Part shown: one piece after another, positions 8,692 through 32,880 of the stretch
How the letters are laid out: the number at the start of each line of letters is the position of its first letter
How positions within the stretch are numbered: position 1 is the stretch's first letter
NCBI GenBank assembly: GCA_964568065.1
Contig: CAZMOT010000003.1
Coordinates: 1-58,280 of the forward strand
From: an uncultured Anaerolineales bacterium
GTDB taxonomy: Bacteria; Chloroflexota; Anaerolineae; B4-G1
DNA length: 58,280 nt
Reading direction: 5' to 3'
The notes under the pieces: model-generated
Told to the model about the DNA's origin: nothing
Seen by the model: the letters and a program-made list of their open reading frames with translations, nothing else
The model's database searches: none
Program-made: the position numbers and the translations under genes

Positions 8692-8698
8692 CTTCTTA

Positions 8699-9475: not shown

Positions 9476-9482
9476 ATCTACC

Positions 9483-11346: not shown

Positions 11347-11413
11347 TGTTGCCTCCACACGCTACTGTAGCACATAACGGGCTACTTGGCAAGCATAAAA
11401 TGAGAAAATGAGA

Positions 11414-17995: not shown

Positions 17996-18112
17996 GTCGC
18001 TCACCTCGCGCGGTGCCCAATGCCCGTGCATGCCCAGCGCATGCAATCCTTGGTGCTATTTTATCACAGATTGGGAGGGATTGTCAATCGTCATCACCTC
18101 GCATTTTCTGCC

Positions 18113-18140
18113 TGTAACTACTCTGTAACCCTGCCGTAAC
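18113..18140 (+). promoter_or_regulatory. Triple 11-bp-phased hexamer direct repeat TGTAAC-N5-TGTAAC-N5-CGTAAC (site 1)
   Basis: Hexamers start at 18113, 18124 and 18135. A -10-like TAGAAT lies 21 nt downstream at 18162-18167. The site sits in the divergent intergenic region upstream of the TPR-LCP gene. Confidence 0.6.
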
Positions 18141-18215
18141 GCCATTCCATCAGAGGGGCGGTAGAATATAAGATGAAACGCGGGGCGCAGCAGATGGAGC
18201 GGCTGTGCTCCTGCC

Positions 18216-20045
18216 ATGGAAGCGGAGACGATGACGATTACAGAGAAGCTATGGAGAGGAATGAGGGCAGCCCATGCCGGGCGGAACGCGGAGGCTCAAG
18301 CTGCTTTTCAGGCCGTGCTGCGCGAGGACCCGACCAACGAGACCGCGCTGGTATGGCTCGGTTACCTGGCCGACGACTCCCGCGCCAGCCTGAACTATAT
18401 CACTCAAGCGCTGGAGGCCCATCCACAGAGTCCACGCATTCACGCGGCGCTGAAGTGGACGTGGCGACGTACTGCTGCTTCCACCTCGGAAGCGGCCAGT
18501 GAAGAGCGTGAGTCCACTCCCCCAGTGCAGTCTTCCCGACGCCGACGGCGCTGGAAGGTGTACCAAACAGGGTTGGCCGCACTGTGGATGGTGCTCATGA
18601 TGTTTGCGCTGGTTGGATGGGTGATCAATCCACCGGCGTGGGCGGAGCCTCCGGCCGCAGCGGCAATGGCTGTCAGTTCTCCCAGTCCTCCCGCGCCGAT
18701 GACTACCGATCTTGACCTTCCTTCGGCGACTCCCACTCCCACCCCCATCTCTACCCCTGCCGGGACGCCATCTTCAACCTCTCCTGCATTCACGCCGACC
18801 CCCATCCCGACACCGACAACACCTCCTCCTCCGGGCGCTGATTTTGTGGTTCCAGAACCGTTTCCTACCATTGCCCCGACCGTCCTTGCTGCGGTCTCCA
18901 CTACGCTTCCCATTCCCACTCCTGTACCACCTGTTGCGGTGGCTGCCGACGCCATCAACATCGTCGTCCTGGGCAGCGACCAGCGGCCGGATTGGTCGGA
19001 GTGGCACACAGATGTCGTTCAAGTTGTCTCCATTCAGCGCGACCGGGGAGCAGTTTCTGTGATCTCCATCCCACGCGACCTATACCTCTACATCCCTGGC
19101 TTCTGGATGAGCCGGATCAACTTCGCCGACTTCTACGGGGAGACTTATGGCTACGAGGGAGGTGGCCCGGCGCTGGTGCGAGACACGCTGCTCTATAACC
19201 TGGGCATCCGGGTGGACTATTACGCCCGCACCAACTTCGACGGTCTGATTGGCGTCGTGGACACGGTAGGTGGAGTGGACATCCCCGTCCACTGCCATCT
19301 CAGCGACCACTGGCCCTATCCAGATGAGAACGGAGAGTATCCCATTCTGACCCTGGAGCCGGGGATACACCACATGGACGGGGAGACGGCTCTCTGGTAC
19401 GCTCGCTCACGGCTGACCACCAACGTCTTCTCACGCGAGCGTCGCCAGCAGCAAGTCCTCCAGGCTATCTGGCACAAGGCACGGGATGCAGGGATGCTCT
19501 CTCAGATTCCGGCTCTATGGAGTCAAGGGCAGGATATGGTGGAGACGGATCTGACGTTCACCGACATCCTGGATCTGGCACTGATAGCTCTCACTCTGGA
19601 GGACCAGAATGTGCGCTTCTACAACATCGGCGCGGATGTGTTAGACCCGTGGGTGACGCCCCACGGCGGATGGGTCTTCCTTCCCCGGTGGGAGGACGTT
19701 CAGCCCCTCCTGGCGGAGGCCATGGCCCCCGCTCCTGAGGCCCGTCTAGGCCGTGTCTACCTGACGGTTGATGTGTGGAATGGGACGCCTAACGAGGGCT
19801 GGGGCTGGCTGGCGGCGGATCGGCTGTATCGGGCTGGGTTCCCGGCGGTGGTCAATGAGGCAGACCGGCGGGACTATGCTGAGACCCAGTTGATCGTCCT
19901 CACCGAGCACACCAAGGGCACTGGGGTGGGGTACTTGCAGCAGATGTTCCAAATCCCAGATAGCCAGGTAATCCACCAGCCAGGTGGGTCCTCCCAGTTT
20001 GGCTTTCGCCTGATCCTTGGGGCAGATTATCAGACCTGCCCTTAA
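18216..20045 (+). CDS. TPR-like domain / TM / Pro-Thr-rich linker / LytR-CpsA-Psr (LCP) domain / LytR_C-like domain protein
   Basis: LCP core NIVVLGSDQRP...HTDVVQVVSI...VSVISIPRDLY. One TM segment (LAALWMVLMMFALVGWVI). The C-terminal V.VWNGT...AD...Q..I segment is typical of LytR_C. An alternative start is at 18231. Confidence 0.82.
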   Translation: MEAETMTITEKLWRGMRAAHAGRNAEAQAAFQAVLREDPTNETALVWLGYLADDSRASLNYITQALEAHPQSPRIHAALKWTWRRTAASTSEAASEERESTPPVQSSRRRRRWKVYQTGLAALWMVLMMFALVGWVINPPAWAEPPAAAAMAVSSPSPPAPMTTDLDLPSATPTPTPISTPAGTPSSTSPAFTPTPIPTPTTPPPPGADFVVPEPFPTIAPTVLAAVSTTLPIPTPVPPVAVAADAINIVVLGSDQRPDWSEWHTDVVQVVSIQRDRGAVSVISIPRDLYLYIPGFWMSRINFADFYGETYGYEGGGPALVRDTLLYNLGIRVDYYARTNFDGLIGVVDTVGGVDIPVHCHLSDHWPYPDENGEYPILTLEPGIHHMDGETALWYARSRLTTNVFSRERRQQQVLQAIWHKARDAGMLSQIPALWSQGQDMVETDLTFTDILDLALIALTLEDQNVRFYNIGADVLDPWVTPHGGWVFLPRWEDVQPLLAEAMAPAPEARLGRVYLTVDVWNGTPNEGWGWLAADRLYRAGFPAVVNEADRRDYAETQLIVLTEHTKGTGVGYLQQMFQIPDSQVIHQPGGSSQFGFRLILGADYQTCP

Positions 20046-20322
20046 CCCCATCGACAGCACCTGCTGCGATACCTTTGCTGCCTGCGCAGCCCAGAGTAGC
20101 TTTTTCGGCACTAACACGCGGGCCAAAGGCGCACATAATTGAGGGAGTGTTGAGATAAAGAGCAAGTCCAGCGCCGGTTGAGTGGAGCGAAGCGACGTAT
20201 CGAAACCAAGTGGGCTGCCCGTAGAGCCGCTTGCTTGGTCTCGATGCGTTTTGCTTAACAACCAGCTCACAGTGGGAGGAAGGAGAATCTCTCCCCTCAT
20301 TCCTGTGGATGAACTCTAACGT

Positions 20323-20350
20323 GCAACACCATTGTAACACAACTGTAACC
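20323..20350 (+). promoter_or_regulatory. Triple 11-bp-phased hexamer direct repeat TGCAAC-N5-TGTAAC-N5-TGTAAC (site 2)
   Basis: Hexamers start at 20323, 20334 and 20345. An AT-rich -10-like TATATT at 20373-20378 lies 22 nt downstream. The site is upstream of the bactofilin gene. Confidence 0.6.
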
Positions 20351-20417
20351 CCTTGTCCGCTCGCCCTATGTTATATTGCCTAGTGATGGCTCAAAACTAC
20401 CTGGAGCGCTGAAAGCC

Positions 20418-21644
20418 ATGGGCAAGGAACGACGGCACACGCCAGACACCACGGTCGGTCCGCAGGCCGCCTTGATTGGACACATGGACACTGATCAGCC
20501 ACTACGCATCTATGGGATCTTTGAAGGCGATCTCGAAGTCACCAACACGGTCTTCATTGATAAGGAAGGACTGGTGAACGCCAACGTCACGGCCGATCAC
20601 GTCATCGTGCAAGGGGTCGTCATCGGCAACGTCTGCGCTGAACGGGTCGAAATCCGCGCCAGTGGCAAGGTTTGGGGCAACGTCTGCGCCCAGAGTTTCT
20701 GTGTCGAGTCAGGCGGTTTTATCCGCGGGCAAGTTATTATCTCCCGCCAGACCGAGCACCAACTCAATACCCGCTTTCTAGAATCACTCGCCGACCCCAT
20801 CGTTCCCCCTCTGCAACCACTGTACGACGATGACCTGGATCACCTGTCGGCCGAACCGGAAGAGATCGCCCAAAAAGCCTCGGCTGTAGACGGCCTGCCG
20901 ATATCTCCCCAACCGGTGCACAGCAAGGAATCGTTGATCCGTGTCGCCGAAGCCAAGAACTGGACGAGCTTTCCACTGCAACTGGGGCTCCAGGCCGTTC
21001 GGCAGGCCTTGGCGGAGCAGGAAGCGTTGGTAGCGACTTTCTCCGCCAACATAGCCCACACCGGCAGCGAACGCGAAACGGCGCTGGTGCAGCACAACAC
21101 CGAACTGCGCGACGAACTCAAGTGTTCGCGCGTGACCGCCTCACAGCACCTGCAGAGCCTGGCCGAACTCCAGGTCGAACTGGACGAGACACGTCTGGCT
21201 CTGGAGACAGCCCAGGATGAGATCTCGCACCTAAACACTAACCTGACTGAGGCCAATGCTCAACTCCAAGGCCTGAGTGATGAGCTTGCTCGCAGCCAGG
21301 CTCGCTACGACCATCTGGTTGCTGAGACCCCCAAGGCGTCTGAGCAACTTCACAGACAACTGGCCGAGGCTAAGGCCGAACAGGATCGGGCGGCTGCCAA
21401 CTTCAATGCCGCCCTGGCCGAAAAAAAAGAGGTAGGAATCGCCCGCTTGCAGGCCGACCCTAAGACAAGCCGAAACCAGGTTGAGCAACAACAACAGGTA
21501 CACATCGCCTACTGTCTGACCTGCCACGGCCAGCGCCCCATGGCAGACGTGCGTGAAATCGTCATGCCCGACGGCCGCCGTACGGTCAAGGGACGCTGTA
21601 CTGCCTGTGGTGCCAGTCTCCTCAGCCTGATACCTTCGAACTAG
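20418..21644 (+). CDS. Bactofilin-domain protein with a long coiled coil and a C-terminal CxxC...CxxC zinc ribbon (DUF5679-like)
   Basis: The N-terminal beta-helical repeat (IFEGDLEVTNTVFIDKEGLVNANVTADHVIVQGVVIGNVCAERVEIRASGKVWGNV...) is typical of bactofilin/CcmA. The central part is Q/E/A/L-rich. The C-terminus reads CLTCHG...CTACG. I chose ATG 20418 because the track start (TTG 20376) overlaps the putative -10. Confidence 0.75.
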   Translation: MGKERRHTPDTTVGPQAALIGHMDTDQPLRIYGIFEGDLEVTNTVFIDKEGLVNANVTADHVIVQGVVIGNVCAERVEIRASGKVWGNVCAQSFCVESGGFIRGQVIISRQTEHQLNTRFLESLADPIVPPLQPLYDDDLDHLSAEPEEIAQKASAVDGLPISPQPVHSKESLIRVAEAKNWTSFPLQLGLQAVRQALAEQEALVATFSANIAHTGSERETALVQHNTELRDELKCSRVTASQHLQSLAELQVELDETRLALETAQDEISHLNTNLTEANAQLQGLSDELARSQARYDHLVAETPKASEQLHRQLAEAKAEQDRAAANFNAALAEKKEVGIARLQADPKTSRNQVEQQQQVHIAYCLTCHGQRPMADVREIVMPDGRRTVKGRCTACGASLLSLIPSN

Positions 21645-21671
21645 GGGGCTGTCTGGGAATGGCTGGCCGCC

Positions 21672-21764
21672 GTGGCTGTGCTGGCTGCCATGGGCCTGGT
21701 CCTGAGCGCGGGCCTGCTGGCCGAGCACTTTCTCATCGCCCTGGCGCTGAGCCACCAATCATAA
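21672..21764 (+). CDS. Candidate small hydrophobic peptide (24-30 aa)
   Basis: It is absent from the track because it is under 60 aa. The frame reads (V)AVLAAMGLVLSAGLLAEHFLIALALSHQS-stop with strongly G/C-biased third positions. Starts could be GTG 21672, GTG 21678 or ATG 21690. There is no clear RBS. Confidence 0.3.
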   Translation: MAVLAAMGLVLSAGLLAEHFLIALALSHQS

Positions 21765-21788
21765 TGCAACACAAGAGAGTAATGAATC

Positions 21789-22340
21789 ATGACCTACATC
21801 AAACTGGTCGTCACCGGGCCTTTTAGTGCTGGCAAGACAGCGCTCATCAATAGCGTCAACGAGATTCGCGGTGTGAACACCGATGTGGACATCGACGCAG
21901 GCCGCCAAGTCAAGCAGCAGACGACGGTGGCGATGGATTTTGGCCAGATCACGTTGCCCGATGGCCCCACGCTACACCTGGTTGGTACGCCGGGACAACA
22001 GCGATTTGCCTTCATGTGGGAGATGCTCATCATCGAGTGTAACGGCATACTGATGCTGGTGGACAGCAGCGATCCAAGTAGCTTTGCCGAGGCCAGGCGG
22101 ATGTTCGATTTTTTTGCTGTTCGTGCCAATGGCGTTCCGATGTTTGTCGCCGCCAACAAGCAGGATTTGCCCGGCGCGCTATCGCCTGATGAGGTGAGCC
22201 AAGCACTGAACTTGGTCGGCCTTGGACAGGCGGGGCGTGCGGTTGCTCTGTTGCCACCCCCGGGCTGCATCGCTTGCGACCGAAGCAGTGTATTGTCCGT
22301 CTTGGAAGCGATAGTGCCCTACCTGGCAGTCGGCCACTAA
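21789..22340 (+). CDS. Small Ras-like GTPase of the CvnD/MglA-like (ATP/GTP-binding protein) family
   Basis: G1 TGPFSAGKT, G3 LVGTPGQQRF (Asp replaced, as in conservon CvnD-type proteins) and G4 ANKQD. Length 183 aa. Confidence 0.8.
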   Translation: MTYIKLVVTGPFSAGKTALINSVNEIRGVNTDVDIDAGRQVKQQTTVAMDFGQITLPDGPTLHLVGTPGQQRFAFMWEMLIIECNGILMLVDSSDPSSFAEARRMFDFFAVRANGVPMFVAANKQDLPGALSPDEVSQALNLVGLGQAGRAVALLPPPGCIACDRSSVLSVLEAIVPYLAVGH

Positions 22341-22406
22341 GTGAAAACGGGAGGGTAACTGCTCAGCCATAGCTCCAAAAGATAGCCGATATAACACACC
22401 TGGCTC

Positions 22407-22489
22407 GGCCTGGATTGCCAAATCCAGGCCAAAGGCGATGAGATTAGATCGAATCAGTCTTTCAGCCGCCGGATCGCCAGATCCGGCGG
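22407..22489 (+). other. Two GC-rich perfect hairpins in the GTPase-Roadblock spacer
   Basis: Hairpin 1 is GGCCTGGAT-tgccaa-ATCCAGGCC (22407-22430). Hairpin 2 is CCGCCGGATC-gcca-GATCCGGCGG (22466-22489). Neither has a U-tract. Confidence 0.5.
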
Positions 22490-22523
22490 GAGCGGGTGAG
22501 TAGTTACACAGGAGGAAACGAAA

Positions 22524-23345
22524 ATGAACGAATCGCACAGAGGTGCCTTTTTAAAGGGAATTCTGCAGGGTCTCTATGGCACTCAGGGGAACATCCCCCC
22601 GGTACCAATGGGGGATCCTCTGAACAGCCTGCTGGGGCAGGTCATCCGACGACGGCCCTACATTTCGGCTCTGGCCCTGATCAGCCCCGGCGGACAACTG
22701 TGGGCCTCGGCGCTGCCGGGCGGCGTGGAGGCGGAAAGTGTGGCGGCGATGGCCGCGCCCGTCGCCTTGCTGGGGCGGCGTGTTGCCCTGGAGCAACTGA
22801 GATCCGATATGCGCCAGGCGTACGTCGAGGGGGAGGGTGGATACGCCATCTTGCGGGCTATCGGCGAAGCAGCAGTTCTGCTGACCATCGCCTCTGCCGG
22901 CGCCAACCTGGCCCTGGTCTTGCACGACGTGGATCTGCTTGAGGGTCACGTGGCCCAGATCTTGGGAGTCACCGTACCCGAGTCGGGCAAGTGGACTGAG
23001 GCTGCCACGTCCATCGAGCATTTGCGCAGGCTGATCAGCGAGAGGCCGACGTCTGAGGTGCTAGAGGAACGCCAGGATGACCTACGGGCCAAGCTCAACT
23101 CACTGGACATGGGCTTCTACCAGAAGCGAGTGGCTGCCATTCGTGCCAGACTGCAGGATCCCACCCAACTCGAAGAGATCAAGGACCTCGAAGAAATCGA
23201 GGCCGAGTTGCTGGCACTAGAGAGGGACGTGATGGCTACGTTAGAACAAGAAATGGTCCCTGCGACTGAACGGGCGGACCAACAGAATTCACTCTTGAGG
23301 AGGACACTTAAATGGTTAGCGTCGATGATCGAATCCGAAGACTAG
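22524..23345 (+). CDS. Roadblock/LC7 (MglB/CvnB-like) domain protein with a C-terminal coiled-coil extension
   Basis: AGGAGG RBS. The N-terminal region ISALALISPGGQLWASALPGG...AYVEGEGGYAILRAIGEAAVLLTIA follows the Roadblock pattern. The C-terminal roughly 120 aa are charged and helical. Confidence 0.72.
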   Translation: MNESHRGAFLKGILQGLYGTQGNIPPVPMGDPLNSLLGQVIRRRPYISALALISPGGQLWASALPGGVEAESVAAMAAPVALLGRRVALEQLRSDMRQAYVEGEGGYAILRAIGEAAVLLTIASAGANLALVLHDVDLLEGHVAQILGVTVPESGKWTEAATSIEHLRRLISERPTSEVLEERQDDLRAKLNSLDMGFYQKRVAAIRARLQDPTQLEEIKDLEEIEAELLALERDVMATLEQEMVPATERADQQNSLLRRTLKWLASMIESED

Positions 23346-23773
23346 GCGGGTTGCTGCGCCAGGTGCAGGGACTCACGCCTAATATCGAAGCCTCGGCTAT
23401 CGTCAGTCCCGAGGGATTGGTACTGGCGTCGGCCTTGCCAGCCGGCACCGACGAGCAGGAGATTGGTGCTATGTCGGCGGCCGTGCTCACGCTGGGCGAG
23501 CGCATTGCGAGAGAGCTACTGTCGGGTCAGGTCAGGCAGGTATACGTCGAAGGAGAGGGCACCGGATATGTCTTTTTGACCTCCATCGGTGAGGAGGCTA
23601 TCCTGGTCACATTGGCCAACCCCGACGCCAAGCTTGCTCTGGTCTTTATGGACATGGGGCGCATCGCCTCCGAGGCCCAGAAGATCTTGCAGGAGGACAT
23701 ACTGGCCGTGACTCAGGCCGATCAGCAACCAGCAATCAGTGTCCAGCAACCAGTGCCCAGTGCAGTGTCGTAG
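23312..23773 (+). CDS. Roadblock/LC7 (MglB/CvnB-like) domain protein
   Basis: GAGGAGG RBS. SAIVSPEGLVLASALPAGTDEQEIGAMSAAVLTLGERIA...VYVEGEGTGYVFLTSIGEEAILVTLA. It overlaps the previous gene by 34 nt. Confidence 0.78.
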   Translation: MVSVDDRIRRLGGLLRQVQGLTPNIEASAIVSPEGLVLASALPAGTDEQEIGAMSAAVLTLGERIARELLSGQVRQVYVEGEGTGYVFLTSIGEEAILVTLANPDAKLALVFMDMGRIASEAQKILQEDILAVTQADQQPAISVQQPVPSAVS

Positions 23774-24073
23774 CCAATCCGCCTACTACATTACCTCGAC
23801 CGTGCTGTGTCATCTGCTGGAGGCCAGCCTCAAGCTGCAGCGGATGGGATCACCGTACAGCGATGAAGTAGTGGAGTGCATCATCGAGAAACTGGGACAG
23901 TCGCTTTCCTCTGTGTCGTACGGTAGGGTTGCGCCGCTAGCAAGGACCCATGTATGGAACAGAAACGAGCTACCTGGCGCTCTTCACCTGGTTCCCTGTA
24001 TGATCCATATTCAGGGTGTAAGGTGCAGTACCCAGCGCCATAGCTCTTTATGGTAGTCACCAGAGTGAGAACA

Positions 24074-25900
24074 ATGAAACCCATTCAGATTTCTGTAAAC
24101 CATCGTCTTTTTGCCGCCTTAGGGCTCGGGGCGATCCTGGCGCTGCTGTTGCTCACAGTATCCCAGGTCGGGGCTCAACCCCCTGTACCTCACGACATAG
24201 TCTTCCTGATTGACAACAGCCAATCGGTGCGCACAGGCGAGGGAACACCAGATGGACAGCCCACCGATCCTGCACTGGTGCGGTTACGCCTGACCCGCTT
24301 TGTGATCACCGTGCTCGGTCTTGACCCCGCCAGTGCCAACCAGCGCGTGGGAGTGATCAGTTTTGCAGACCACACAGAGACTCTGATGCCAATGACACCG
24401 GTTCAGGATTGGTCAAGGGCGGATTTTGCCGAGATCCGCGCGGTAAGACAGGGAGGAACAGACTTTGCGCTCGCCCTGGACGCTGCCTCAGAGATGCTCG
24501 CTTCCGACTGTTCGCCAGACGTCCGTTGTTGTGACGCCATTATGGTAACCGACGGAATCTTCGAGAAATACAAAGCTCGGCGAGACCAGCAGGCGACCGA
24601 AGATGCCTTGCAGAGTCTGCGCTCCCGCGGCGTATCGGTACACCTGTTGACGTTTGGAGCGGGAGATCAGAAATGGCAGGAATTCCTGACCGACGACCTC
24701 ATTTCTACCTACCAGCCGAGCGTCACCTCGGCCCCTCCCGACCAGGTGTACGGCACCGTGCTCCGCAATCTGGGAGCTGAAGCGCTGCTGGCCGGCCTGA
24801 CGCCTGTGGAGGTGGTCGGTGAGGAGATCGTTGCCCTGACCGTCCACAACTTCCGCACCTGGACGCGCTACCAGATTTTGCCGGACTCACCGCTGACCGT
24901 GACGTTCCTCCACGCAGGCCAGGTAGTGACGCCGGTCGTGGTGGGCACTGAGTACACGTTGTTCCAGCCGCAAGCCGGGGAGTGGAACGTGCGGCTGCAG
25001 GGTGATGGACTGGCCTACTACCAGCAAACCGGTGAGGGCGTCGCTGACCTTTCGCTGTACCTGCGTGCACCGGAGGGGGTCTTGACGTTGGGGGAGGACG
25101 TAACAGTGCGCGCTGGGCTCACAGCAGATGGTGCACCTGTGACCGACCTGATCCCCTTCACCATTACGGCGGCAATCAACGGTGCAGCGGGTATCATCGG
25201 TCCGCTGAACCTGGAACTGGATAAGACGATTGGCCTGTTCGCAACCACGGCACCGGCGGACCGGTTCAAGAGCGGTGTGTACACCGTGACACTGGCGGCA
25301 CAGAGCAGCGTTCCAGGCTTAGGGGTGCAGCCTGTGACGGAGCAATTCGAGATAGCCGCACTACCGACGCTTGCAATGACGGTAACGCCGACCGGACCAA
25401 TCCGGCCCGGGCAGTCTGTGCATGTGATTGTGACAGTTGAAAACTGGAGACCGGGATATGTGCCCAGGCTTCGATTTTATGGCCCTGCGGCGGTTAGCAT
25501 CGACACACCCACCTGGAGCACCCAAGGGACGGGAGTGTTCACCGGCACGATAACGATGACTTCTGGCATCACGTCCTCTTTCGCCATAGTAGCTCAACTG
25601 GTGGGAGGAGCGGGGACACCTGCGGGCGAACTGTTTGACGCTATTGAAACTACACCGCAACTTGTTGAATTCACCACGATGTCCCCAGTTGTTATGACAG
25701 CCCAATACTCGATGTGGCTAACGATCCCTCTGTGCGCCTTGCTCACCATCGGCGCATTTGCTTGGTGGCGCTTTTATGGCACAAGTAGACAACGAAAACG
25801 ACGAATAAAACAGTTGCGCGACGAGGTAGAGACATTGGCCCGTATAGTGGGAGAAGTACCAGAGGAGTCTGGTGCTATTATTGAATCGTGGAATGTTTAG
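24074..25900 (+). CDS. Membrane-anchored von Willebrand factor A (vWA) domain protein
   Basis: N-terminal signal or TM segment, then the MIDAS motif DIVFLIDNSQSV. It continues with beta-rich repeats, a C-terminal TM segment (WLTIPLCALLTIGAFAWW) and a basic cytosolic tail. Confidence 0.75.
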   Translation: MKPIQISVNHRLFAALGLGAILALLLLTVSQVGAQPPVPHDIVFLIDNSQSVRTGEGTPDGQPTDPALVRLRLTRFVITVLGLDPASANQRVGVISFADHTETLMPMTPVQDWSRADFAEIRAVRQGGTDFALALDAASEMLASDCSPDVRCCDAIMVTDGIFEKYKARRDQQATEDALQSLRSRGVSVHLLTFGAGDQKWQEFLTDDLISTYQPSVTSAPPDQVYGTVLRNLGAEALLAGLTPVEVVGEEIVALTVHNFRTWTRYQILPDSPLTVTFLHAGQVVTPVVVGTEYTLFQPQAGEWNVRLQGDGLAYYQQTGEGVADLSLYLRAPEGVLTLGEDVTVRAGLTADGAPVTDLIPFTITAAINGAAGIIGPLNLELDKTIGLFATTAPADRFKSGVYTVTLAAQSSVPGLGVQPVTEQFEIAALPTLAMTVTPTGPIRPGQSVHVIVTVENWRPGYVPRLRFYGPAAVSIDTPTWSTQGTGVFTGTITMTSGITSSFAIVAQLVGGAGTPAGELFDAIETTPQLVEFTTMSPVVMTAQYSMWLTIPLCALLTIGAFAWWRFYGTSRQRKRRIKQLRDEVETLARIVGEVPEESGAIIESWNV

Positions 25901-25920
25901 GGCACCGTGCTGATTCCGAA

Positions 25921-26197
25921 CTCACCTTTGACCAATGCAAATTGGGGATCGCGCTGTTGGTGGCGGAGCGACTGTATCGAGCCGGTTCCCGGCAGTGGTC
26001 AGCGAGCCGGACCGGTCGAAATACGCCAAGACCTAGTTGGTCGCCTTCAGCGAGCACGTCAAAAGCGCCAGAAGGGAATACCTGCAGCGGATGCTCAGGT
26101 TCCAAACAGCCAGGTGCTCCACCAGTCAGGTGGGTCCTCCGAGCTTGGCTTTCGTCCGAGCCTTGGGGCGGATTATCAAACCCGCCCTCGACCCTAG
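25921..26197 (+). pseudogene. Decayed fragment of a third LCP/LytR_C copy (last 80-90 codons only)
   Basis: The nucleotide sequence aligns by eye with the 3' ends of 18216-20045 and 27306-30752. The homologous peptides are split over three frames (AERLYRAG / QLVAFSEH / QVLHQSGGSSELGFR..LGADYQTRPRP-stop). There is an in-frame TAG where the intact copies have CAG (gaccTAGttg). Confidence 0.7.
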
Positions 26198-26275
26198 CAA
26201 TGCTTCTAAATCCCAGAGCGACAACGCGGTCACCACGACCTGGGACGGTCTTGCTATTCTCCTGGCCTTGTTCTC

Positions 26276-26303
26276 AGTAACCAGCCTGTAACATGGCTGT
26301 AAC
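26276..26303 (+). promoter_or_regulatory. Triple 11-bp-phased hexamer direct repeat AGTAAC-N5-TGTAAC-N5-TGTAAC (site 3)
   Basis: Hexamers start at 26276, 26287 and 26298. TATAAT at 26325-26330 lies 21 nt downstream. The site is upstream of the ParA / PAS-GAF-LCP operon. Confidence 0.6.
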
Positions 26304-26551
26304 GTCCTCCCACCTAAAGCTATGTATAATAGAAGCGCAATAAATGCTTGCATCGCCGCTGTGCTGTGTCAGACCTTACACGTTGGGCGAGGATGTGACG
26401 GAACTGATCATTACCGTCTCCGGTTGGGCGGAGGTCAGCGAGTAGTTCGACAGCCAAACCTGCTGGGAGTCATCCTGTCCTCACACGGTGATGGAATAAG
26501 GTAAGTCATACGTAAGCGGTACCCTGGGTTTGTTGGAGGGTGAAATTAGCT

Positions 26552-27313
26552 ATGACCATAACTATTGCCATTGGTAATCAGAAAGGTGGAGTGGCTAAGA
26601 CCACCACGTGCCTGTCTCTGGGAGCCTGTCTGGCCGAGATGGGACAAATTGTCCTACTGATTGACCTGGACCCCCAGACCAACCTCACCCTCTCGCTGGG
26701 ATTGAAGCCAGAGAAACTGCGCTACACGGTGGACGATGCCTTACTGGGGAATACTTCGCTGGTGAGCGTCAGTCGCGAGAGTGAGGCATTCGGTCTGGAT
26801 ATCATTCCTGCCAACCGGGGGCTGGCTGCCCTTGACAAAGTCCTTTATGGGCGACGGAACTATGAGTTTTTCTTAAGGCGTGGGCTGGATGCTATGGACG
26901 AGAACTTCTACGACGTTGTCCTGATTGACTGTCCGCCCTCCTTTGGCACGCTAACTCTCAATGCCTTGACCGCGGCAGACTTGCTCATTATCCCTGTCCA
27001 GTGTGAGTACTACGCCGTGCACTCGTTGCGTCGAACCATAGAACTGGCGAAACTGGTGCGCGAGAAAACCAACCCGCGGCTGGTCTACCGTTTGCTGGTG
27101 ACAATGTACGACCAGCGCAACAAGATCTGCCGGATCCTGCTCGACTATATGCGGCAAGGGCTGAACAAGGTTCTCTTCGAGACTATTATCGAGGTAGACA
27201 CCAAGTTGAAAGAGAGCCCAGTGTTTGGTCAGCCAATTACGCTTTACGCACCAGGGACCCGAGGTGCTCAACAGTACCGGGCACTTGCAAAGGAGTTAAT
27301 GAATCATGGATAA
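26552..27313 (+). CDS. ParA/Soj-family deviant Walker-A ATPase
   Basis: IAIGNQKGGVAKTTT, LLIDLDPQTNLT and VLIDCPPS motifs. GGAGGG RBS upstream of ATG 26552. Confidence 0.85.
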   Translation: MTITIAIGNQKGGVAKTTTCLSLGACLAEMGQIVLLIDLDPQTNLTLSLGLKPEKLRYTVDDALLGNTSLVSVSRESEAFGLDIIPANRGLAALDKVLYGRRNYEFFLRRGLDAMDENFYDVVLIDCPPSFGTLTLNALTAADLLIIPVQCEYYAVHSLRRTIELAKLVREKTNPRLVYRLLVTMYDQRNKICRILLDYMRQGLNKVLFETIIEVDTKLKESPVFGQPITLYAPGTRGAQQYRALAKELMNHG

Positions 27314-30300
27314 CGACAAGGAGATGAAAGTTCAACTTGAGGATCTATTTTCCGAGTTGGAAGACCCCATAGTAGCCAAGGAAGATATGCTCGTGTCTCT
27401 GAAAGGTCTGATAGAGGATGTCACTGAGCGCAAGCAGACCCAGAAACAACGGATCATCTTCCGCGCCCTGGTGGAGAACGGCATAGACGCTATCACTGTC
27501 AGCGACCTAGAAGGCTGCCAGACCTACAGCAACCGCGCCTGCTACGAGGTCTTTGGCTACGACCACGAAAACCAGGAGATGAATGACCTGTCGCTGGTCA
27601 ATCTCTGGCCCGCAGAGGACACTTTCACTTTTCCCGGTCAGGTGCTTCCTCAGGCCAAGGCCGGAAGCTGGAGCGGCGAAGTGCAGCTCAAGCGCAGAGG
27701 CGGCACCCTGTTCGATGCCTACCTGACTGCCTTCCCTGTGCTGGACAAGGCAGGTCAACCCATCAGCATAGCCATCATCATCCGCGACATCTCCGAGCGC
27801 AAGCGACTGGAGCGCGAACGCAATACAATGCACGAGAACCGCGCCCGTCAGGTGCGGCTCATCACCGAGGTAGCCCAGGAGATTGCTGCCGCCCCGGCTC
27901 TGGACGAGCTCTACCGCCGCGTCGTAACCTTGGTCAAAGAACGCTTCGGCTATTACCACGTTCAGCTCTATCGCTACGATCCCGAACTGGACGACATGGT
28001 GGTCGTAGAGAGCTACGTCCAGGCCGGGGGGGAGATGAGCGCTGCCAGCCACAGATCGTCCCACAATGGTAATAGAGGCATCGTCGTCACGGCATCGGCC
28101 ACCGGGCAGCCTGTCCTGGTCTCCGACGTATCCCAGAACCCCCACTGGGTGGCCCACCCCGACTTGCCCGATGTCAAAGGTGAGTTGGTCGTGCCCATCA
28201 AGTTGCGCGGCCAAGTGCTGGGTGTGCTGGACGTGCTGAGCGACACGGTCGGCACACTCACCCGTGAGGACGAAATCGTGCTCCTGGAGTTGGCCGGCCA
28301 AATCGCCAGTGCTATGGAGAAGACCCGCTTGCTCGAAGAAGCTAATATCCTCCGCCAGTTTGGCAAAGCCCCCGAAGGGATTGGCTGGATTACATTAGAA
28401 GGTAGCATTATCATCTACATCAACCCCACTCTCTGCAGCATCCTCGGTGAAGCCAAACCAGAAGACACCTTCGGCAGATCCATCATCTCCTACTACCCCA
28501 GAGAATTGCGGCAACGCGTACAAAATGAAATCCTGCCTACCGTCCTGCGAGAAGGTCAATGGATTGGTGAATTGGCATTCCTCTCAGCCCGGGGCAAAAT
28601 CACTTCTACCATTCAGAGCATCTTCCTTATCCGTGACGAAAATGGGAATCCACTCTATTTAGCCAACGTGGTAACCGACATTACCGAACAGAAGCAGGCT
28701 GAATTCCTCCTGAACAAGCGCGCCGAGCAGATCAACTGCCTGAACGAAATTGGCCGGAGGATAGATGAGACCCCGCAGGTACCCGAGTTCCTGCAATGGG
28801 TAGCGGAGCGCATCCCACCGGCCATGCAGTATCCGGACGTGTGTGTGGCTGCCGTTGAGTTCGAAGACACCGACCACAGCGGTCGGGCAGTCTACGGTGT
28901 AGCCAAGGCGGTGGAGATGCCGTGTCAGATCGTGGAGGGTCTGAGTATCGGCGGTGAGACGGTGGGCCAGATGTACCTCTCGTATACTCAGGCGCACGAC
29001 TTTCTCGACGAGGAGAGAGCACTGCTGGGTGACATCGCTAGACGGGTGAGCAACTACATCGAGAGTCGCCGCCTGTTAGAGCAGACCCGGGATGCGCTGA
29101 CCGAGGTGAAGACTACCCATCAGCATTACATGCCCGGCCAGTGGACCAGGCTCGCCCCCCAGCAGACATCTCCCGAATCTGCCCAGCCAGACACGCCCCC
29201 CCCCGGCGACGATGGGCTGCAGGCTCGTCCGCGGGGCAGCCGCGTGGGCGCAGCGCTGCGGAAAACGTGGCAACGTGTGATCACGGGGCTGTCCGCCCTG
29301 GTGATATTGTTCTTGCTGGGAACGCTGCTCACGTGGACGTTCGGTCTCCAGGTGCAGGCAGATCCTCCGGCGGCGCTGGCTGTGGCCCTACCCTTCAGCT
29401 CTCCTTCGCCAACGGTTGCGCTTTTTCCCCGCCTCACGACGACGCCCAGCCTCATCTATCGCCCGATCAGATCGCCCCCGCACGTTTCTACCCCCTCATC
29501 CCCCCCCAGCCTGGCGCCGACTCTCTCTTCTTCGCACGCCTCCTTCATTGTTCCAGAGCCGTTCCCTGCCATTGATCCGAACGTCCCTGCCACGGTCTCC
29601 ACTACACTTCCCATCCCCACCCCCGTCCCGCCTGTCCCGGTGGCCGCCGACGCCGTCAACATCGTCGTCCTGGGCAGCGACCGGCGACCGGACTGGTCGG
29701 AGTGGCACACCGACGCCGTCCACGTTGTCTCCATCCAGCGCGACCGGGGAGAGGTCTCCGTCATCTCCATCCCACGCGACGTATACCTCTACGTCCCTGG
29801 TTTCTGGATGAGTCGGATCAACTTCGCCGATTTCTACGGGGAGGCTTATGACTACGAGGGGGAAGGCCCGGCGCTGGTGCGGGACACGCTGCTCTATAAC
29901 CTGGGCATCCGGGTGGACTATTTCGTCCGCACCAACTTCGATGGCCTGATCGGCATCGTAGACACGTTGGGCGGAGTGGACATCCCGGTCCACTGTCGCC
30001 TCAGCGACTACTGGCCCTACCCAGACGAGAACGGGGAGTATCCCATCCTGACCATGGAGCCGGGAATACACCACCTGGACGGGGAGACCGCTCTCTGGTA
30101 CACTCGTTCGCGGATGACGACCAGCGTCTTCTCCCGCGACCGGCGCCAGCAGCAAGTCCTCCGGGCTATCTGGCACAAGGCACGGGATGCAGGGATGCTC
30201 TCTCAGGTTCCGGCCCTGTGGAGACAAGGGCGAGACATGGTGAAGACCGACCTGACGCTGACCGACATTCTGGATCTGGCACAGATAGCTTTCACGCTGG

Positions 30301-30752
30301 AAGATCAGAACGTGCGCTTCTACAACATCGGCGCGGACGAGGTGACCCCGTGGACGACACCCTACGGCGGTGGCGTCTTTCTCCCTCGCTGGGAGGACAT
30401 CAAGCCCATCTTGGCAGAGGCGATGGCCCCCATACCTGAGGCCCGTCTGAGCCGCACCTATATGCCAGTCGAGGTATGGAACGGAACATCCAATCCAGAC
30501 TGGGACCTGCTGGCGGCGGATCGGTTGTATCAAGCCGGGTTCCCGGCGGTGGCCGGTGAGCCGGAGCGGCGAGACTACGCCGAGACCCAGTTGATCGTCT
30601 TCAGCGAGCACATCAAGGGCACCGGGGTGGAGTACCTGCAGCAGACGTTCCAGATTCCGGACGACCAGGTGATCCACCAGCCACACGTATCCTCCGAGTT
30701 TGGATTCCGCCTGATCCTCGGGGCGGATTACCAGACCTGCCCTCAACCTTAA
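27306..30752 (+). CDS. PAS-GAF-PAS cytoplasmic sensor region fused through one TM segment and a Pro/Ser-rich linker to an LCP (LytR-CpsA-Psr) plus LytR_C ectodomain
   Basis: The start overlaps the parA stop by 8 nt. PAS-like segments (FRALVENGIDAITVSDLEG..., ...IIIRDISERK; GWITLEGSIIIYINPT...VVTDITEQK). GAF-like segment (YHVQLYRYD...GELVVPIKLRGQVLGVLDV). TM segment LSALVILFLLGTLLTWTF. LCP core NIVVLGSDRRP...VSVISIPRDVY. Confidence 0.82.
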   Translation: MDNDKEMKVQLEDLFSELEDPIVAKEDMLVSLKGLIEDVTERKQTQKQRIIFRALVENGIDAITVSDLEGCQTYSNRACYEVFGYDHENQEMNDLSLVNLWPAEDTFTFPGQVLPQAKAGSWSGEVQLKRRGGTLFDAYLTAFPVLDKAGQPISIAIIIRDISERKRLERERNTMHENRARQVRLITEVAQEIAAAPALDELYRRVVTLVKERFGYYHVQLYRYDPELDDMVVVESYVQAGGEMSAASHRSSHNGNRGIVVTASATGQPVLVSDVSQNPHWVAHPDLPDVKGELVVPIKLRGQVLGVLDVLSDTVGTLTREDEIVLLELAGQIASAMEKTRLLEEANILRQFGKAPEGIGWITLEGSIIIYINPTLCSILGEAKPEDTFGRSIISYYPRELRQRVQNEILPTVLREGQWIGELAFLSARGKITSTIQSIFLIRDENGNPLYLANVVTDITEQKQAEFLLNKRAEQINCLNEIGRRIDETPQVPEFLQWVAERIPPAMQYPDVCVAAVEFEDTDHSGRAVYGVAKAVEMPCQIVEGLSIGGETVGQMYLSYTQAHDFLDEERALLGDIARRVSNYIESRRLLEQTRDALTEVKTTHQHYMPGQWTRLAPQQTSPESAQPDTPPPGDDGLQARPRGSRVGAALRKTWQRVITGLSALVILFLLGTLLTWTFGLQVQADPPAALAVALPFSSPSPTVALFPRLTTTPSLIYRPIRSPPHVSTPSSPPSLAPTLSSSHASFIVPEPFPAIDPNVPATVSTTLPIPTPVPPVPVAADAVNIVVLGSDRRPDWSEWHTDAVHVVSIQRDRGEVSVISIPRDVYLYVPGFWMSRINFADFYGEAYDYEGEGPALVRDTLLYNLGIRVDYFVRTNFDGLIGIVDTLGGVDIPVHCRLSDYWPYPDENGEYPILTMEPGIHHLDGETALWYTRSRMTTSVFSRDRRQQQVLRAIWHKARDAGMLSQVPALWRQGRDMVKTDLTLTDILDLAQIAFTLEDQNVRFYNIGADEVTPWTTPYGGGVFLPRWEDIKPILAEAMAPIPEARLSRTYMPVEVWNGTSNPDWDLLAADRLYQAGFPAVAGEPERRDYAETQLIVFSEHIKGTGVEYLQQTFQIPDDQVIHQPHVSSEFGFRLILGADYQTCPQP

Positions 30753-30778
30753 CACTACAACCGCACTAACCCGCTTCT

Positions 30779-32248
30779 TTATTCCCGTGGCACGTAGTAC
30801 AGTATTCTGAAGTCAGTCGTGCCATGCACGACACCATCAATGTAGAGCGTCACGCTGTAATTCCCACCAGAAAGCACCCGGCCGAGTTCGTTGTGGTAGG
30901 CTACCCAGTGCGTGCCCTCCGCCCCATCGGTCCCCACGTCCCAGAAGTATTCCTCCTGCGCCACCTCCCGACCATAGCGCATCCACACCGCCGCCCACCT
31001 CAGCCCACCGCTCATCCCCACGTACTCGAAGATGCCGTAGACCACTTTGGTGTTCCAATCGAAGACGTTATCTGGCGCAGTGATGATCGGCGTGCCGTCG
31101 GGTTGTACACCCAGAGCGATGGTGGCGCCGCTAAAGGCAGGGGGCACCACTTCTTCCACTGCCGCCTTCCCAATCGTGAGCCCCACACGGGCCTGCTCTT
31201 CGCCCGCCACAGCCACTGCTACCTCGCAGTCGCCGGGGGAGAATGATTGGTCGCCTGGGGCCTGGAAACCGACCTGCATCCGCCCCTGGGGGGCACCGCT
31301 CCACACATCCGTGTTCTCCTGGATCGCCCTCCCCTCGTGGTAGAGCGTGTGTGAGACGTCCAACCCTGGACATAATCCCTCATATTCGTAACTCAGATAG
31401 ATCACCCGCACGCCGGCTTCAAACACATTTCCATCCGCTTCATCGGGCGCTTCCTCGGCCGGCTCAGGCACATCCGCCACCCGCAGGTTGAAAACGCGCT
31501 GGACTGTGTCCAGCACCTGAAACGAGCGCCCCCCCACCACTTGCTCGCCCACGTAGATGAGCAGGTCATACTGACCCGGTTCCACACCCTCCGAACCACT
31601 GACCAGGGTGCGTATGGTGGTGCGCTGAGTCTCCTTTCCCCACGGGGTCGCAGGCTGAGCATCCACGACTACGCCATCGCGTTGCATTTCCCAGCGCCAT
31701 TCCATCTCAGGCTCAATACCCTCCAGCGCGAACTCGGCGATGATTTCAGGGCTGCCCAGGCAGAAGGTATCGGTGGCCGTCTTCAACGCGCCGCTCGTGT
31801 TCAGCTCTGTGCCCACCACAGCGTAACTCAAGAGGGGCACCGGCATCGGCGTGGCCGTTTCCCTGGAACTCGTGTCTACTACGGATGTAAGTGCGAACAG
31901 GCCCACGGCGATGATGACCACCGCTGCCCCACCGACGAGCATCCAGACCAGAGGGAACGGTGGGCGGCGGGCAGGCTCTTCTGGCGGGGGTGCTCTCCTG
32001 GGGTCGAGCGGCTGCAGCATGGTGTCGGGGTAGACGCCCGTGTGATCGTAGACGACGTTGCCCCAGAAGCGCATCAGCGCCCGCAGTTGGCCGCGTTTGG
32101 CTGGGTTAGCAACGACGGTGCCAGCCTGCCTCAGGTCGGTGATCAGCGTGTTGGTCTCGTCCAGGAAGGCTTCATCTACCACACCACGTTTCAGTTGGCC
32201 TAGTTTCTCTTGGTGCCGTCGTTGAAAGGTATCCAAAAGGTCGCTCAT
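30779..32248 (-). CDS. Hypothetical single-pass membrane protein with three repeated beta-rich ectodomain modules
   Basis: Cytosolic N-terminal roughly 90 aa, then the TM segment FPLVWMLVGGAAVVIIAVGLFAL. Three modules of about 100 aa each end in a G.Y.V.LY..G..V....F.. pattern. The start shares an ATGA overlap with the upstream gene. Confidence 0.55.
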   Translation of the reverse strand: MSDLLDTFQRRHQEKLGQLKRGVVDEAFLDETNTLITDLRQAGTVVANPAKRGQLRALMRFWGNVVYDHTGVYPDTMLQPLDPRRAPPPEEPARRPPFPLVWMLVGGAAVVIIAVGLFALTSVVDTSSRETATPMPVPLLSYAVVGTELNTSGALKTATDTFCLGSPEIIAEFALEGIEPEMEWRWEMQRDGVVVDAQPATPWGKETQRTTIRTLVSGSEGVEPGQYDLLIYVGEQVVGGRSFQVLDTVQRVFNLRVADVPEPAEEAPDEADGNVFEAGVRVIYLSYEYEGLCPGLDVSHTLYHEGRAIQENTDVWSGAPQGRMQVGFQAPGDQSFSPGDCEVAVAVAGEEQARVGLTIGKAAVEEVVPPAFSGATIALGVQPDGTPIITAPDNVFDWNTKVVYGIFEYVGMSGGLRWAAVWMRYGREVAQEEYFWDVGTDGAEGTHWVAYHNELGRVLSGGNYSVTLYIDGVVHGTTDFRILYYVPRE

Positions 32249-32880
32249 AGCATCCCTCCCAGCAGGCGTGTGGACAACCGCTGCAGCTTGTCCATGACCG
32301 CCCGTAGTTTGCGATCGGTCAGGGCCAGGTGGCGATGACAGACGCTGTTGAACTCCTCGGCCAGTTCGAGCAAGCTCTCAGGGCTGGGATGTTCTTCCTT
32401 CAGTGCATTCTCTAACAACAGTTGCAGCGCGACGATTTCCACCACCCATCGCTCCCCGCGCAATTCACGCCCTTCCCGCCGGAATGGGCGGCCGATGTGC
32501 TCGATCTCCTCAGCAAAGTCCACCAGCATATCCACCCTATCCTGGCAGGGCCGCCAGTTCTGCAGCAATGCCTGGCGTTCGTCTGCACTAAAACCACCCT
32601 CCCCGAATGGGATAACCCGAGTATGGAACAGGGAGAAGGCGACCAGTACCTCGTGCAGCAGGTGATGCAATTCTTTCCAACCTGCCATCCGGGCCTGCAG
32701 AGCGGTGAGTTTCGCGATTACCTCGCATAGTTCAGCCTGTGCCTGTTCGTCGGTCGGCAGCGAGTGCTGGAGAGTTTCTCTTACCCTCTCGGCCATCCAC
32801 TCGATTTCTTCAACGTGAATTACGTCACCCATTCGCGCCTCGAAGTCGCCGCCTGTGGGTGTTGCTTCGGTATCGTCCAT
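32245..32880 (-). CDS. Hypothetical cytosolic alpha-helical protein
   Basis: 211-aa ORF with no recognisable motif. It appears translationally coupled on both sides. An alternative start is at 32832. Confidence 0.5.
   Translation of the reverse strand: MDDTEATPTGGDFEARMGDVIHVEEIEWMAERVRETLQHSLPTDEQAQAELCEVIAKLTALQARMAGWKELHHLLHEVLVAFSLFHTRVIPFGEGGFSADERQALLQNWRPCQDRVDMLVDFAEEIEHIGRPFRREGRELRGERWVVEIVALQLLLENALKEEHPSPESLLELAEEFNSVCHRHLALTDRKLRAVMDKLQRLSTRLLGGML

Follow-up and report, generated by a model that had tools for sequence, protein, structure and literature searches.

A narrowly distributed bactofilin, MglA-family GTPase and Roadblock operon in Anaerolineae, encoded beside envelope genes

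Genes and features of the locus

The 58,280-nucleotide (nt) stretch of contig CAZMOT010000003.1 (assembly GCA_964568065.1) from an uncultured Anaerolineales bacterium, called the window throughout, is ordinary chromosomal DNA, in which PFK, DnaK, HrcA, PrmA, S1 and Nuo-like genes are present. On its plus strand a bactofilin, a small GTPase of the MglA family and two Roadblock/LC7 proteins are encoded in succession, followed by a vWA membrane protein, a ParA ATPase and a PAS-GAF sensor fused to an LCP enzyme. Domains were called with Pfam profile searches, supplemented with NCBIfam, topology prediction and PDB searches, and the Pfam searches bore out the domain calls of a first-pass annotation made from the sequence, which had regarded seven consecutive genes of this neighbourhood as one candidate system.

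The bactofilin gene (20376-21644, +) encodes a beta-helix, a coiled coil of ~200 amino acids (aa) and a C-terminal DUF5679 Zn-ribbon. Translation most likely begins at ATG 20418, since the TTG at 20376 is overlapped by the -10 element. The bactofilin domain (PF04519, aa 25-120) reaches 73.9 bits against a cut-off of 27.9 (E 1.3e-20), and polymer formation is predicted from the family. Behind it lie a gene relic (21645-21764, +), the GTPase gene (21789-22340, +; recognised through its motifs and the Pfam families ATP_bind_1, Arf and Ras), the gene for a Roadblock/LC7 protein with a coiled-coil tail (Robl273; 22524-23345, +), that for a second Roadblock/LC7 protein (Robl153; 23312-23773, +) and that for a type-I vWA membrane protein (24050-25900, +; called from Pfam, topology and an AlphaFold model). 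Next come an LCP pseudogene fragment corresponding to a LytR_C end (25986-26188, +), a Soj-like ParA gene (26540-27313, or 26552-27313 with the later start, +) and the fusion gene, which runs PAS-GAF-PAS-(GAF-like)-transmembrane (TM)-LCP-LytR_C (27306-30752, +). Upstream, where the first-pass annotation had already placed an LCP paralogue and a giant sensor kinase, a TPR-LCP-LytR_C protein (LCP609; 18216-20045, +) and a sensor histidine kinase of 1348 aa (four GAF domains, HisKA and HATPase; 14000-18046, -) are indeed encoded.

The seven genes had been described as separated by short gaps or overlaps, which holds for two pairs only: tight coupling is limited to the Roadblock genes (34-nt overlap) and to ParA with the LCP fusion (8-nt overlap, in agreement with the translational coupling proposed for them), whereas elsewhere the intergenic gaps amount to 144, 183, 276 and 651 nt. 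As the 651-nt gap contains the LCP pseudogene fragment as well as a promoter, the neighbourhood must consist of at least three transcription units.

A conserved four-gene core

Neighbourhoods were gathered by contig look-ups, one GTDB species-genome scan and one metagenome scan with the GTPase alignment, and were compared by tblastn. In about 20 distinct Anaerolineae loci (numbered with the prefix L) the core has a fixed order, i.e. the bactofilin with coiled coil and Zn-ribbon, the GTPase, the tailed Roadblock and the second Roadblock. Of 32 orthologous loci, 26 contain the bactofilin or its Zn-ribbon, contig ends having cut off the remainder, and in the window as well as in 31 of the 32 the GTPase gene is immediately followed by two Robl_LC7 genes; in 86 long loci of more distant GTPase relatives there is neither bactofilin nor Zn-ribbon, and Roadblocks are never paired. 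The proposal that a GTPase switch, Roadblock proteins and a bactofilin make up one conserved unit is supported by this comparison (26/32 against 0/86). Extended to all seven genes it does not hold: gene order is conserved for the four-gene core, but the accessory genes are permuted or absent, the vWA gene being found in one of two locus types only (type B, described below) and the LCP, PAS-GAF and ParA genes only in the subclade of the window.

The set of GTPase orthologues is sharply bounded, comprising 44 protein clusters at 56-97% identity (annotated Chloroflexota or Anaerolineae), with the next relatives at no more than 51%. In the GTDB species-genome scan an orthologue was carried by six species representatives only, all of them Anaerolineae/Chloroflexota metagenome-assembled genomes (MAGs). 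An exhaustive search of 1.84 billion representatives returned, for the tailed Roadblock, two full-length clusters at 50% identity and a few fragments, and a separate metagenome scan seeded with the vWA protein gave no confirmed locus. The operon of bactofilin, GTPase and two Roadblocks is narrowly distributed and vertically inherited in one Anaerolineae clade. All of its parts belong to known families and its logic has precedents in Myxococcus; a description of a gene set combining bactofilin, Roadblock and GTPase was not found in full-text literature searches (including DUF5679, Chloroflexi and MglA as terms), in line with the earlier impression that no system of this composition had been described.

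Among the more distant GTPase relatives (40-48% identity) an OmpR-type response regulator gene is often located immediately upstream of the GTPase gene (L018, L021, L024, L028-L035, L037, L045-L047 and others, at ~9200-9950 in locus coordinates), which looks like a recurrent pairing.

The GTPase and the Roadblock proteins

The GTPase contains the motifs GPFSAGKT (G1), QTTVAMDFG with the threonines 45 and 46 (G2), G66-T-P-G-Q70 (G3) and NKQD with D126 (G4). The G-box residues (GxxxxGKT, T45-T46, GTPGQ70 and NKQD126) are invariant across 24 aligned orthologues, and the AlphaFold2 model (pLDDT 81.8) has a Ras-superfamily fold. In the MglA family the G3 box lacks the conserved aspartate and reads TVPGQ in Group 1 and GTPGQ, together with Thr-Thr in G2, in Groups 2-5 (PMC4316618); both hallmarks of this family, an Asp-less G3 and adjoining Roadblock genes, are present here. 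Group 1 proteins have an intrinsic arginine finger beside the G2 threonine, together with TVPGQ (PMC4316618), and membership of that group is ruled out by the Thr-Thr pair that replaces the arginine finger and by the GTPGQ of G3. The conservon group, in which G4 reads NxFD (PMC4316618), is excluded because G4 is the canonical NKQD. The label 'CvnD-type' given by the first-pass annotation was therefore imprecise: correct as to GTPGQ, which is shared by MglA groups 2-5, but not as to G4.

Group 5 combines GTPGQ with a canonical [NT]KxD and is known from Chloroflexi, Aquificae and others, in variable neighbourhoods and with no function known (PMC4316618). Both the motifs (NKQD and GTPGQ) and the taxon agree with this group, and an Aquifex protein is among the sequence matches. 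By sequence and fold searches the GTPase is as close to Arl8, Arl2, Arf and Ras as it is to MglA. Because these searches do not separate MglA from Arf/Arl/Ras, the group was assigned from motifs only, and the protein is best termed Group-5-like.

In the first Roadblock protein the Roadblock/LC7 domain (aa ~30-150; PDB 7F8M, 6.8e-14) is followed by a coiled-coil tail of ~120 aa. The second matches the same structure at 2.2e-24, and both also match CvnB5 (3LEQ). Their genes overlap by 34 nt, as they do in the gene calls for eight out of ten related loci with both genes (the exceptions being L010 and L176). The 183-nt spacer between the GTPase and the first Roadblock gene contains two perfect 10-bp hairpins (22407-22430 and 22466-22489, +), each with a GCCA loop; the corresponding spacer is much shorter in most relatives, measuring 12-28 nt in five related loci, and has 88-164 nt in L001, L003 and L172. 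The hairpins have no Rfam match, nor did an Rfam scan of 17900-31000 give any. Possible explanations are the insertion of a palindromic element, or a site of processing or attenuation.

Two locus architectures

The orthologous loci come in two forms. Type A, the majority form (L001, L003, L005, L007, L011, L013, L014, L092, L095, L096, L098-L101 and L172), has a bactofilin of 630-1054 aa and, before the GTPase, a secreted repeat protein of ~420 aa and a polytopic membrane protein of ~820-860 aa (the pair is found at 6224-9995 in L005, 6255-9996 in L003 and 6227-10004 in L001), the gene for the latter abutting or overlapping that of the GTPase (-4 to +40 nt). In the six type B loci (the window, L009, L010, L171, L173 and L176) a short bactofilin gene is followed directly by the GTPase gene, and a vWA protein of ~570-620 aa is encoded after the Roadblocks wherever the contig extends that far; the window bactofilin, too, is shorter than the 630-1054-aa orthologues. 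Type B forms one clade (78% bootstrap) nested in type A in a neighbour-joining analysis of three concatenated core proteins, and is therefore the derived state. The secreted repeat protein and the membrane protein were lost in type B, which carries the vWA gene after the Roadblocks.

The secreted protein is built of ~50-aa repeats (YxVVWxD...DIYG). The membrane protein is MmpL-like: the L172 orthologue reaches 26.4 with PF03176 (cut-off 20.5; three other orthologues give no match), a profile of the family finds MmpL4 and MmpL5 as its best PDB matches (E = 8e-4 and 0.027, over two separate regions), and it contains a long central coiled-coil insert, as in MmpL4 and MmpL5. Most orthologues of either protein match no Pfam family. 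As a further envelope link, LysM (peptidoglycan-binding) proteins are encoded after the Roadblocks in L003 (12536-13420) and L005 (12028-13149). Mobile elements occur at two of the loci, i.e. a phage-type integrase directly after the module in L172 (6267-7199, -) and a transposase between a kinase/regulator pair and the bactofilin in L173 (2676-3875, -).

The relic at 21645-21764, recognised by tblastn and alignments, lies in frame right behind the bactofilin stop and encodes a product ending in LAAVAVLAAMGLVLSAGLLAEHFLIALALSHQS before a stop codon, of which 22-24 of 32 residues are identical to the MmpL-like C-termini of L005, L007 and L172. What had been proposed as a small hydrophobic peptide is the stump (the last ~35 codons of the MmpL-like gene, which is intact in relatives) left by the deletion of both type A genes. 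No trace of the stump was found in the other type B loci, and when the ~420-aa and ~830-aa type A genes were sought elsewhere in the window, the three minus-strand genes at 30779-34336 included, the stump alone was matched (over 30 codons).

The vWA surface protein

The window carries the vWA gene, as do four of its five type B relatives (L009, L010, L171 and L176), the contig of L173 ending earlier, and the product of this gene has only 19 homologues in a search of 5.8 billion proteins. The AlphaFold model (pLDDT 78.6) shows a signal-peptide-like helix, the vWA domain, three beta-sandwich domains and a TM helix that continues into a cytoplasmic helix; the MIDAS motif (D55xS57xS59) is invariant in the family alignment. 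Membrane anchors had initially been assigned to both ends of the protein. The C-terminal anchor stands, but the N-terminal hydrophobic segment looks like a signal peptide (ending ...VGA/QPP), which implies a type I topology with a single C-terminal anchor and a cytoplasmic tail of 44 aa. In fold the model comes closest to immunoglobulin (Ig)/MG arrays and to the vWA(+Ig) ectodomains found in anthrax toxin receptors, with low TM-scores (~0.23 on the query).

The segment comprising the TM helix and the tail (RRIKxLRDExExLARxV...ESWNV) is 50-62% identical in ten other module-linked orthologues and unrelated in longer paralogues (8-22% identity). If the cytoplasmic module docks on this protein, the tail is the most obvious candidate site. 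Two of the longer paralogues (785-814 aa), in L174 (1-16706) and L175 (1-20712), are part of a different conserved cluster without a GTPase, which includes two giant proteins (>1600 aa, with faint TPR matches), a metallophosphatase and several family-less proteins. Classification as a Bat-type vWA protein (BatA/BatB) was rejected, given 23.8 bits with NF047506 against a cut-off of 350, the lack of a bat operon and a different architecture.

LCP, ParA and sensor neighbours

LCP609 consists of a cytoplasmic TPR part, a TM helix (115-139), a Pro/Thr linker, the LCP domain and LytR_C, and is 61% identical to LCP630 of L009. In the fusion protein a TM helix (658-676) joins the sensor to LCP and LytR_C. 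The LCP domains score 99-101 bits with PF03816 and 84 bits with TIGR00350, and in both proteins one TM helix precedes the domain; in the predicted topology the TPR and PAS-GAF parts are cytoplasmic and the two LCP domains extracytoplasmic. Both are predicted glycopolymer transferases by family membership. They are 68% identical overall and far more so across the catalytic domain, i.e. they are recent paralogues. The fragment at 25986-26188 is frameshifted and stop-containing, was detected by tblastn (2e-11) and shares 82% nt identity over 111 nt with the 3' end of the LCP609 gene. Together with the 68%-identical pair it shows that duplication and decay took place recently in this region. Its position before ParA fits an ancestral order like that of L009 (LCP-ParA-PAS-GAF), which would have been followed by duplication, deletion and fusion.

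The presence of LCP and PAS-GAF genes, with or without ParA, beside the module is confined to the subclade (window, (L009, L171)), which is supported by a bootstrap value of 97%, and the order of these genes is permuted. In L009 it is LCP630, ParA, PAS-GAF-PAS (676 aa, soluble), bactofilin, GTPase, Roadblock, Roadblock and vWA; in L171, which lacks ParA, it is bactofilin, GTPase, Roadblock, Roadblock and vWA, followed by PAS-GAF-PAS-TM. ParA is accordingly found in two of the three subclade loci (the window and L009), and in L010 and L176 the vWA gene is directly followed by ClpB. The PAS-GAF-LCP fusion occurs in at least 25 protein clusters of ~1150 aa, the unfused form of ~650-676 aa being about equally common, and two further contigs hold both a vWA orthologue and a PAS-GAF protein.

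The ParA protein (AAA_31, 1.7e-50), with the deviant Walker A motif NQKGGVAKT, is 76% identical to its L009 orthologue and matches PDB 8RAY (4e-52) and Thermus Soj (5e-43); it stays below every NCBIfam equivalog cut-off, and no ParB gene lies nearby. The kinase at 14000-18046, which is divergent from LCP609 and has weak, sub-cut-off PDZ matches, is an orphan whose position is not kept in all relatives; it is possible that it provides input to the module. A GAF histidine kinase and an OmpR-type regulator are encoded upstream in L173 and L176, and in L010 the neighbour of an OmpR-type regulator is a kinase-like fragment, truncated at the contig end and lacking any domain record.

A shared triple-box promoter

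The first-pass annotation had noticed that the units share nGTAAC repeats, which the motif search substantiated: the 58-kb window contains three copies of TGTAAC-N5-TGTAAC where 0.00 are expected, and each copy stands before a transcription unit and is part of a triple nGTAAC direct repeat with an 11-bp period. The arrays (all +) lie before LCP609 (18113-18140, 21 nt upstream of TAGAAT), before the bactofilin operon (20322-20349; TGCAAC, TGTAAC and TGTAAC, 22 nt upstream of TATATT) and before ParA and the PAS-GAF-LCP gene (26276-26303, 21 nt upstream of TATAAT at 26325-26330). In 2.07 Mb of collected loci the two-box pattern has 13 matches, all of them in orthologous loci. Twelve promoters from seven genomes, belonging to the three units of the window and to nine units in six related loci, could be aligned in a single layout of three boxes, 21-22 nt and TAnAAT. 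The box promoter precedes the bactofilin in L010, L173, L176 and the type A locus L014, the PAS-GAF gene in L171, and both LCP and ParA in L009, where ParA, PAS-GAF, bactofilin, GTPase, both Roadblocks and vWA all lie behind one box promoter. Of all the evidence for joint action of the LCP, bactofilin and ParA units, this element is the strongest.

The triple-box geometry resembles the direct-repeat sites of winged-helix response regulators (Pho and OmpR boxes). A reading of TGTAAC as the -35 element of sigma-X-type extracytoplasmic function (ECF) promoters was rejected, given the triple 11-bp array and its distance of 21-22 nt to a sigma-70-type TATAAT. In L176 an additional GTAAC-type triple box (5305-5333) closely follows the gene of the OmpR-type regulator and precedes that of a protoglobin, and the box regulon may extend beyond envelope genes.

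Relation to known systems

Among the closest known systems are the polarity modules of Myxococcus xanthus, where SofG-BacP and MglA/MglB/MglC likewise combine an MglA-family GTPase, a bactofilin landmark and Roadblock-fold regulators. The two different Roadblocks found here are reminiscent of MglB and MglC, and G3 is Asp-less in both systems. Unlike in Myxococcus, however, a single operon encodes the bactofilin, the GTPase and both Roadblocks, the GTPase is Group-5-like (with TT instead of the arginine finger, and GTPGQ instead of TVPGQ), the genes for the Roadblocks follow that of the GTPase and one of them encodes a coiled-coil tail, and the cargo genes encode envelope proteins rather than pilus ATPases. 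The Streptomyces conservons (CvnA-D) also bring a Roadblock and a GTPGQ-type GTPase together in one operon, with links to sensor kinases. A conservon comprises a kinase (CvnA), a Roadblock (CvnB), a DUF742 protein (CvnC) and CvnD, whereas the present operon has neither a CvnA-type kinase nor DUF742, reads NKQD at G4, places the GTPase before two Roadblocks and adds a bactofilin and a membrane partner.

Bactofilin partnerships have precedents in BacP-SofG and bactofilin-PbpC (PMC4085708), and BacNOP/PadC positions ParA (10.1101/2020.06.17.156356). In Caulobacter BacAB-PbpC and Myxococcus BacNOP-PadC-ParA a bactofilin polymer serves as the landmark for a wall enzyme or for ParA, and an orphan Soj-like ParA is encoded near the present bactofilin as well; in contrast to those systems, PadC and ParB are missing here, the bactofilin is extended by a long coiled coil and by a Zn-ribbon, a GTPase/Roadblock switch comes in between, and an LCP ligase takes the place of a penicillin-binding protein. 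Ragulator/LAMTOR with Rag or Arl8 also joins two distinct Roadblocks to a small GTPase in a membrane-anchored setting, and the nearest solved relatives of the GTPase by sequence are Arl8, Arl2 and Arf, but the resemblance is one of parts only; longin domains and the C-terminal Roadblock domains of Rag are absent. Anthrax-toxin-receptor and integrin vWA receptors have the same layout as the vWA protein (signal peptide, MIDAS vWA, Ig-like stalk, TM helix and short tail), and here cytoskeletal genes adjoin; the structural match is weak (TM-score of ~0.23), the protein has three beta-sandwich domains and its bacterial family has only ~19 members. The likeness is one of analogy and no demonstrated homology.

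For Group-5 MglA GTPases, the locus supplies a fixed and interpretable context of bactofilin, two Roadblocks and an envelope partner. Until now SofG-BacP of Myxococcus has been the only demonstrated case of a bactofilin-GTPase partnership, which the present loci support independently through genomic linkage in a distant phylum. How Chloroflexota form their envelope and grow as multicellular organisms is poorly understood, and the conserved cis-element, the specifically conserved 44-aa receptor tail and the natural deletion series (type A, type B and relic) provide leads. Although the clade is small (six GTDB species, and two full-length protein clusters at 50% identity), the locus is of interest to the fields of bacterial small GTPases, bactofilins and the Chloroflexota envelope.

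Interpretation

A membrane-spanning envelope partner is always encoded beside the module, ancestrally the MmpL4/5-like protein together with the secreted protein and, in the lineage of the window, the vWA-Ig protein. Because of the shared promoter and the adjacency to surface and wall genes, the module may control where or when the envelope is built. The interpretation that we tentatively favour is that of a bactofilin-scaffolded GTPase switch coupled to envelope machinery. The two Roadblocks would pair as a heterodimer and determine whether the GTPase is in its GTP or its GDP state, in the manner of a GTPase-activating protein or guanine nucleotide exchange factor. In its GTP-bound form the GTPase would dock on the scaffold of bactofilin and coiled coil and on the cytoplasmic face of the envelope partner, and this docking would fix the site or timing of surface-protein display and of LCP-mediated polymer attachment in filamentous cells. 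One regulator, probably a winged-helix response regulator, would switch the whole set on together.

Several observations weigh against such a coupled switch. The hosts are all uncultured MAGs. The MMPL assignment is weak (one of four orthologues above the Pfam cut-off, PDB E ~1e-3). L171 lacks ParA, and L010 and L176 have ClpB after vWA rather than ParA, PAS-GAF or LCP; the PAS-GAF-LCP fusion, being more widespread than the module, may act independently of it. The window holds no candidate regulator for the boxes, an OmpR search having matched only a receiver-ParA-like fusion, and synteny in fairly close relatives can persist without a functional link.

A more far-reaching version of the coupled switch borrows from integrins: bactofilin and a GTPase/Roadblock heterodimer would grip the vWA-Ig tail (ancestrally an MmpL-type exporter) from the inside and thereby dictate the sites of LCP grafting in multicellular filaments, the whole forming one triple-GTAAC regulon under a dedicated response regulator. 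In this complete form it is unlikely.

Alternatively, the locus could encode a signalling relay, in which GAF or PAS-GAF input sets the GTPase via the Roadblocks, the output is enzyme activity or transcription, and the bactofilin is a passive platform. The combination of GTPGQ and TT is common to conservon CvnD, the Roadblocks match CvnB5 (3LEQ), OmpR-type regulators flank the module in L010, L173 and L176, GAF kinases do so in L173, L176 and the window, and in many distant relatives an OmpR-type regulator gene stands immediately upstream of the GTPase gene. That such a relay accounts for the operon is nevertheless doubtful, since a CvnA-type kinase and CvnC (DUF742) are missing from it, G4 reads NKQD and not NxFD, the position and type of the kinase vary across loci, and a polymer-forming bactofilin that bears a long coiled coil is strictly inherited along with the module.

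It is also conceivable, if rather improbable, that there is no system beyond the four-gene core, and that vWA, ParA, PAS-GAF-LCP and LCP are independent neighbours kept together by shared ancestry in a rearrangement-prone region. The presence of the accessory genes does vary among relatives, the region bears duplications, deletions and pseudogene relics, and the PAS-GAF-LCP family is broader than the module. Chance neighbours would, however, not readily explain why the same rare promoter stands before each unit and is kept across genomes despite the permuted order, why the genes from ParA to vWA follow one box promoter in L009, or why the vWA tail is conserved only in module-linked copies.

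A polarity or motility switch of the Myxococcus type, sorting pili or gliding machinery with the envelope genes as bystanders, is very unlikely. MglA/MglB and SofG/BacP are the sole characterised bacterial systems that combine these families, and many filamentous Chloroflexota glide, but pilus, gliding and chemosensory genes are absent from the window and from the ~20 loci (save for one methyl-accepting chemotaxis protein gene 7 kb off in L001), the genes tightly or translationally coupled to the module are those of the MmpL-like transporter or vWA, and G2 has TT in place of the Group-1 arginine finger. Lastly, an anti-phage or conflict system is scarcely credible, for although combinations of vWA, NTPase and coiled-coil parts occur in such systems and an integrase and a transposase adjoin the module in L172 and L173, PADLOC gave only two marginal generic matches for ten proteins (E ~5e-4, to coiled-coil or P-loop segments), the chromosomal context is one of housekeeping genes, inheritance is vertical within one clade, and no nuclease or other effector domains are encoded.

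Other genes in the window

Three consecutive genes downstream of the fusion gene (30779-34336, -), encoding proteins of 489, 211 and 503 aa, are assigned to no family by either Pfam or PADLOC; the first product contains one TM helix and the third is a polytopic protein. Since no related locus has a counterpart of any of the three, they were not counted as part of the system. An open reading frame of 183 aa at 35884-36435 consists of HATPase_c alone, without HisKA or a sensor part. A second protein of the ParA family, in which a receiver domain is fused to a ParA/MinD-like ATPase (Response_reg and AAA_31), is encoded at 10198-11358 (-), and ~1.4 kb from it, on the same strand, lies the gene of a second GAF histidine kinase (7486-8766, -).

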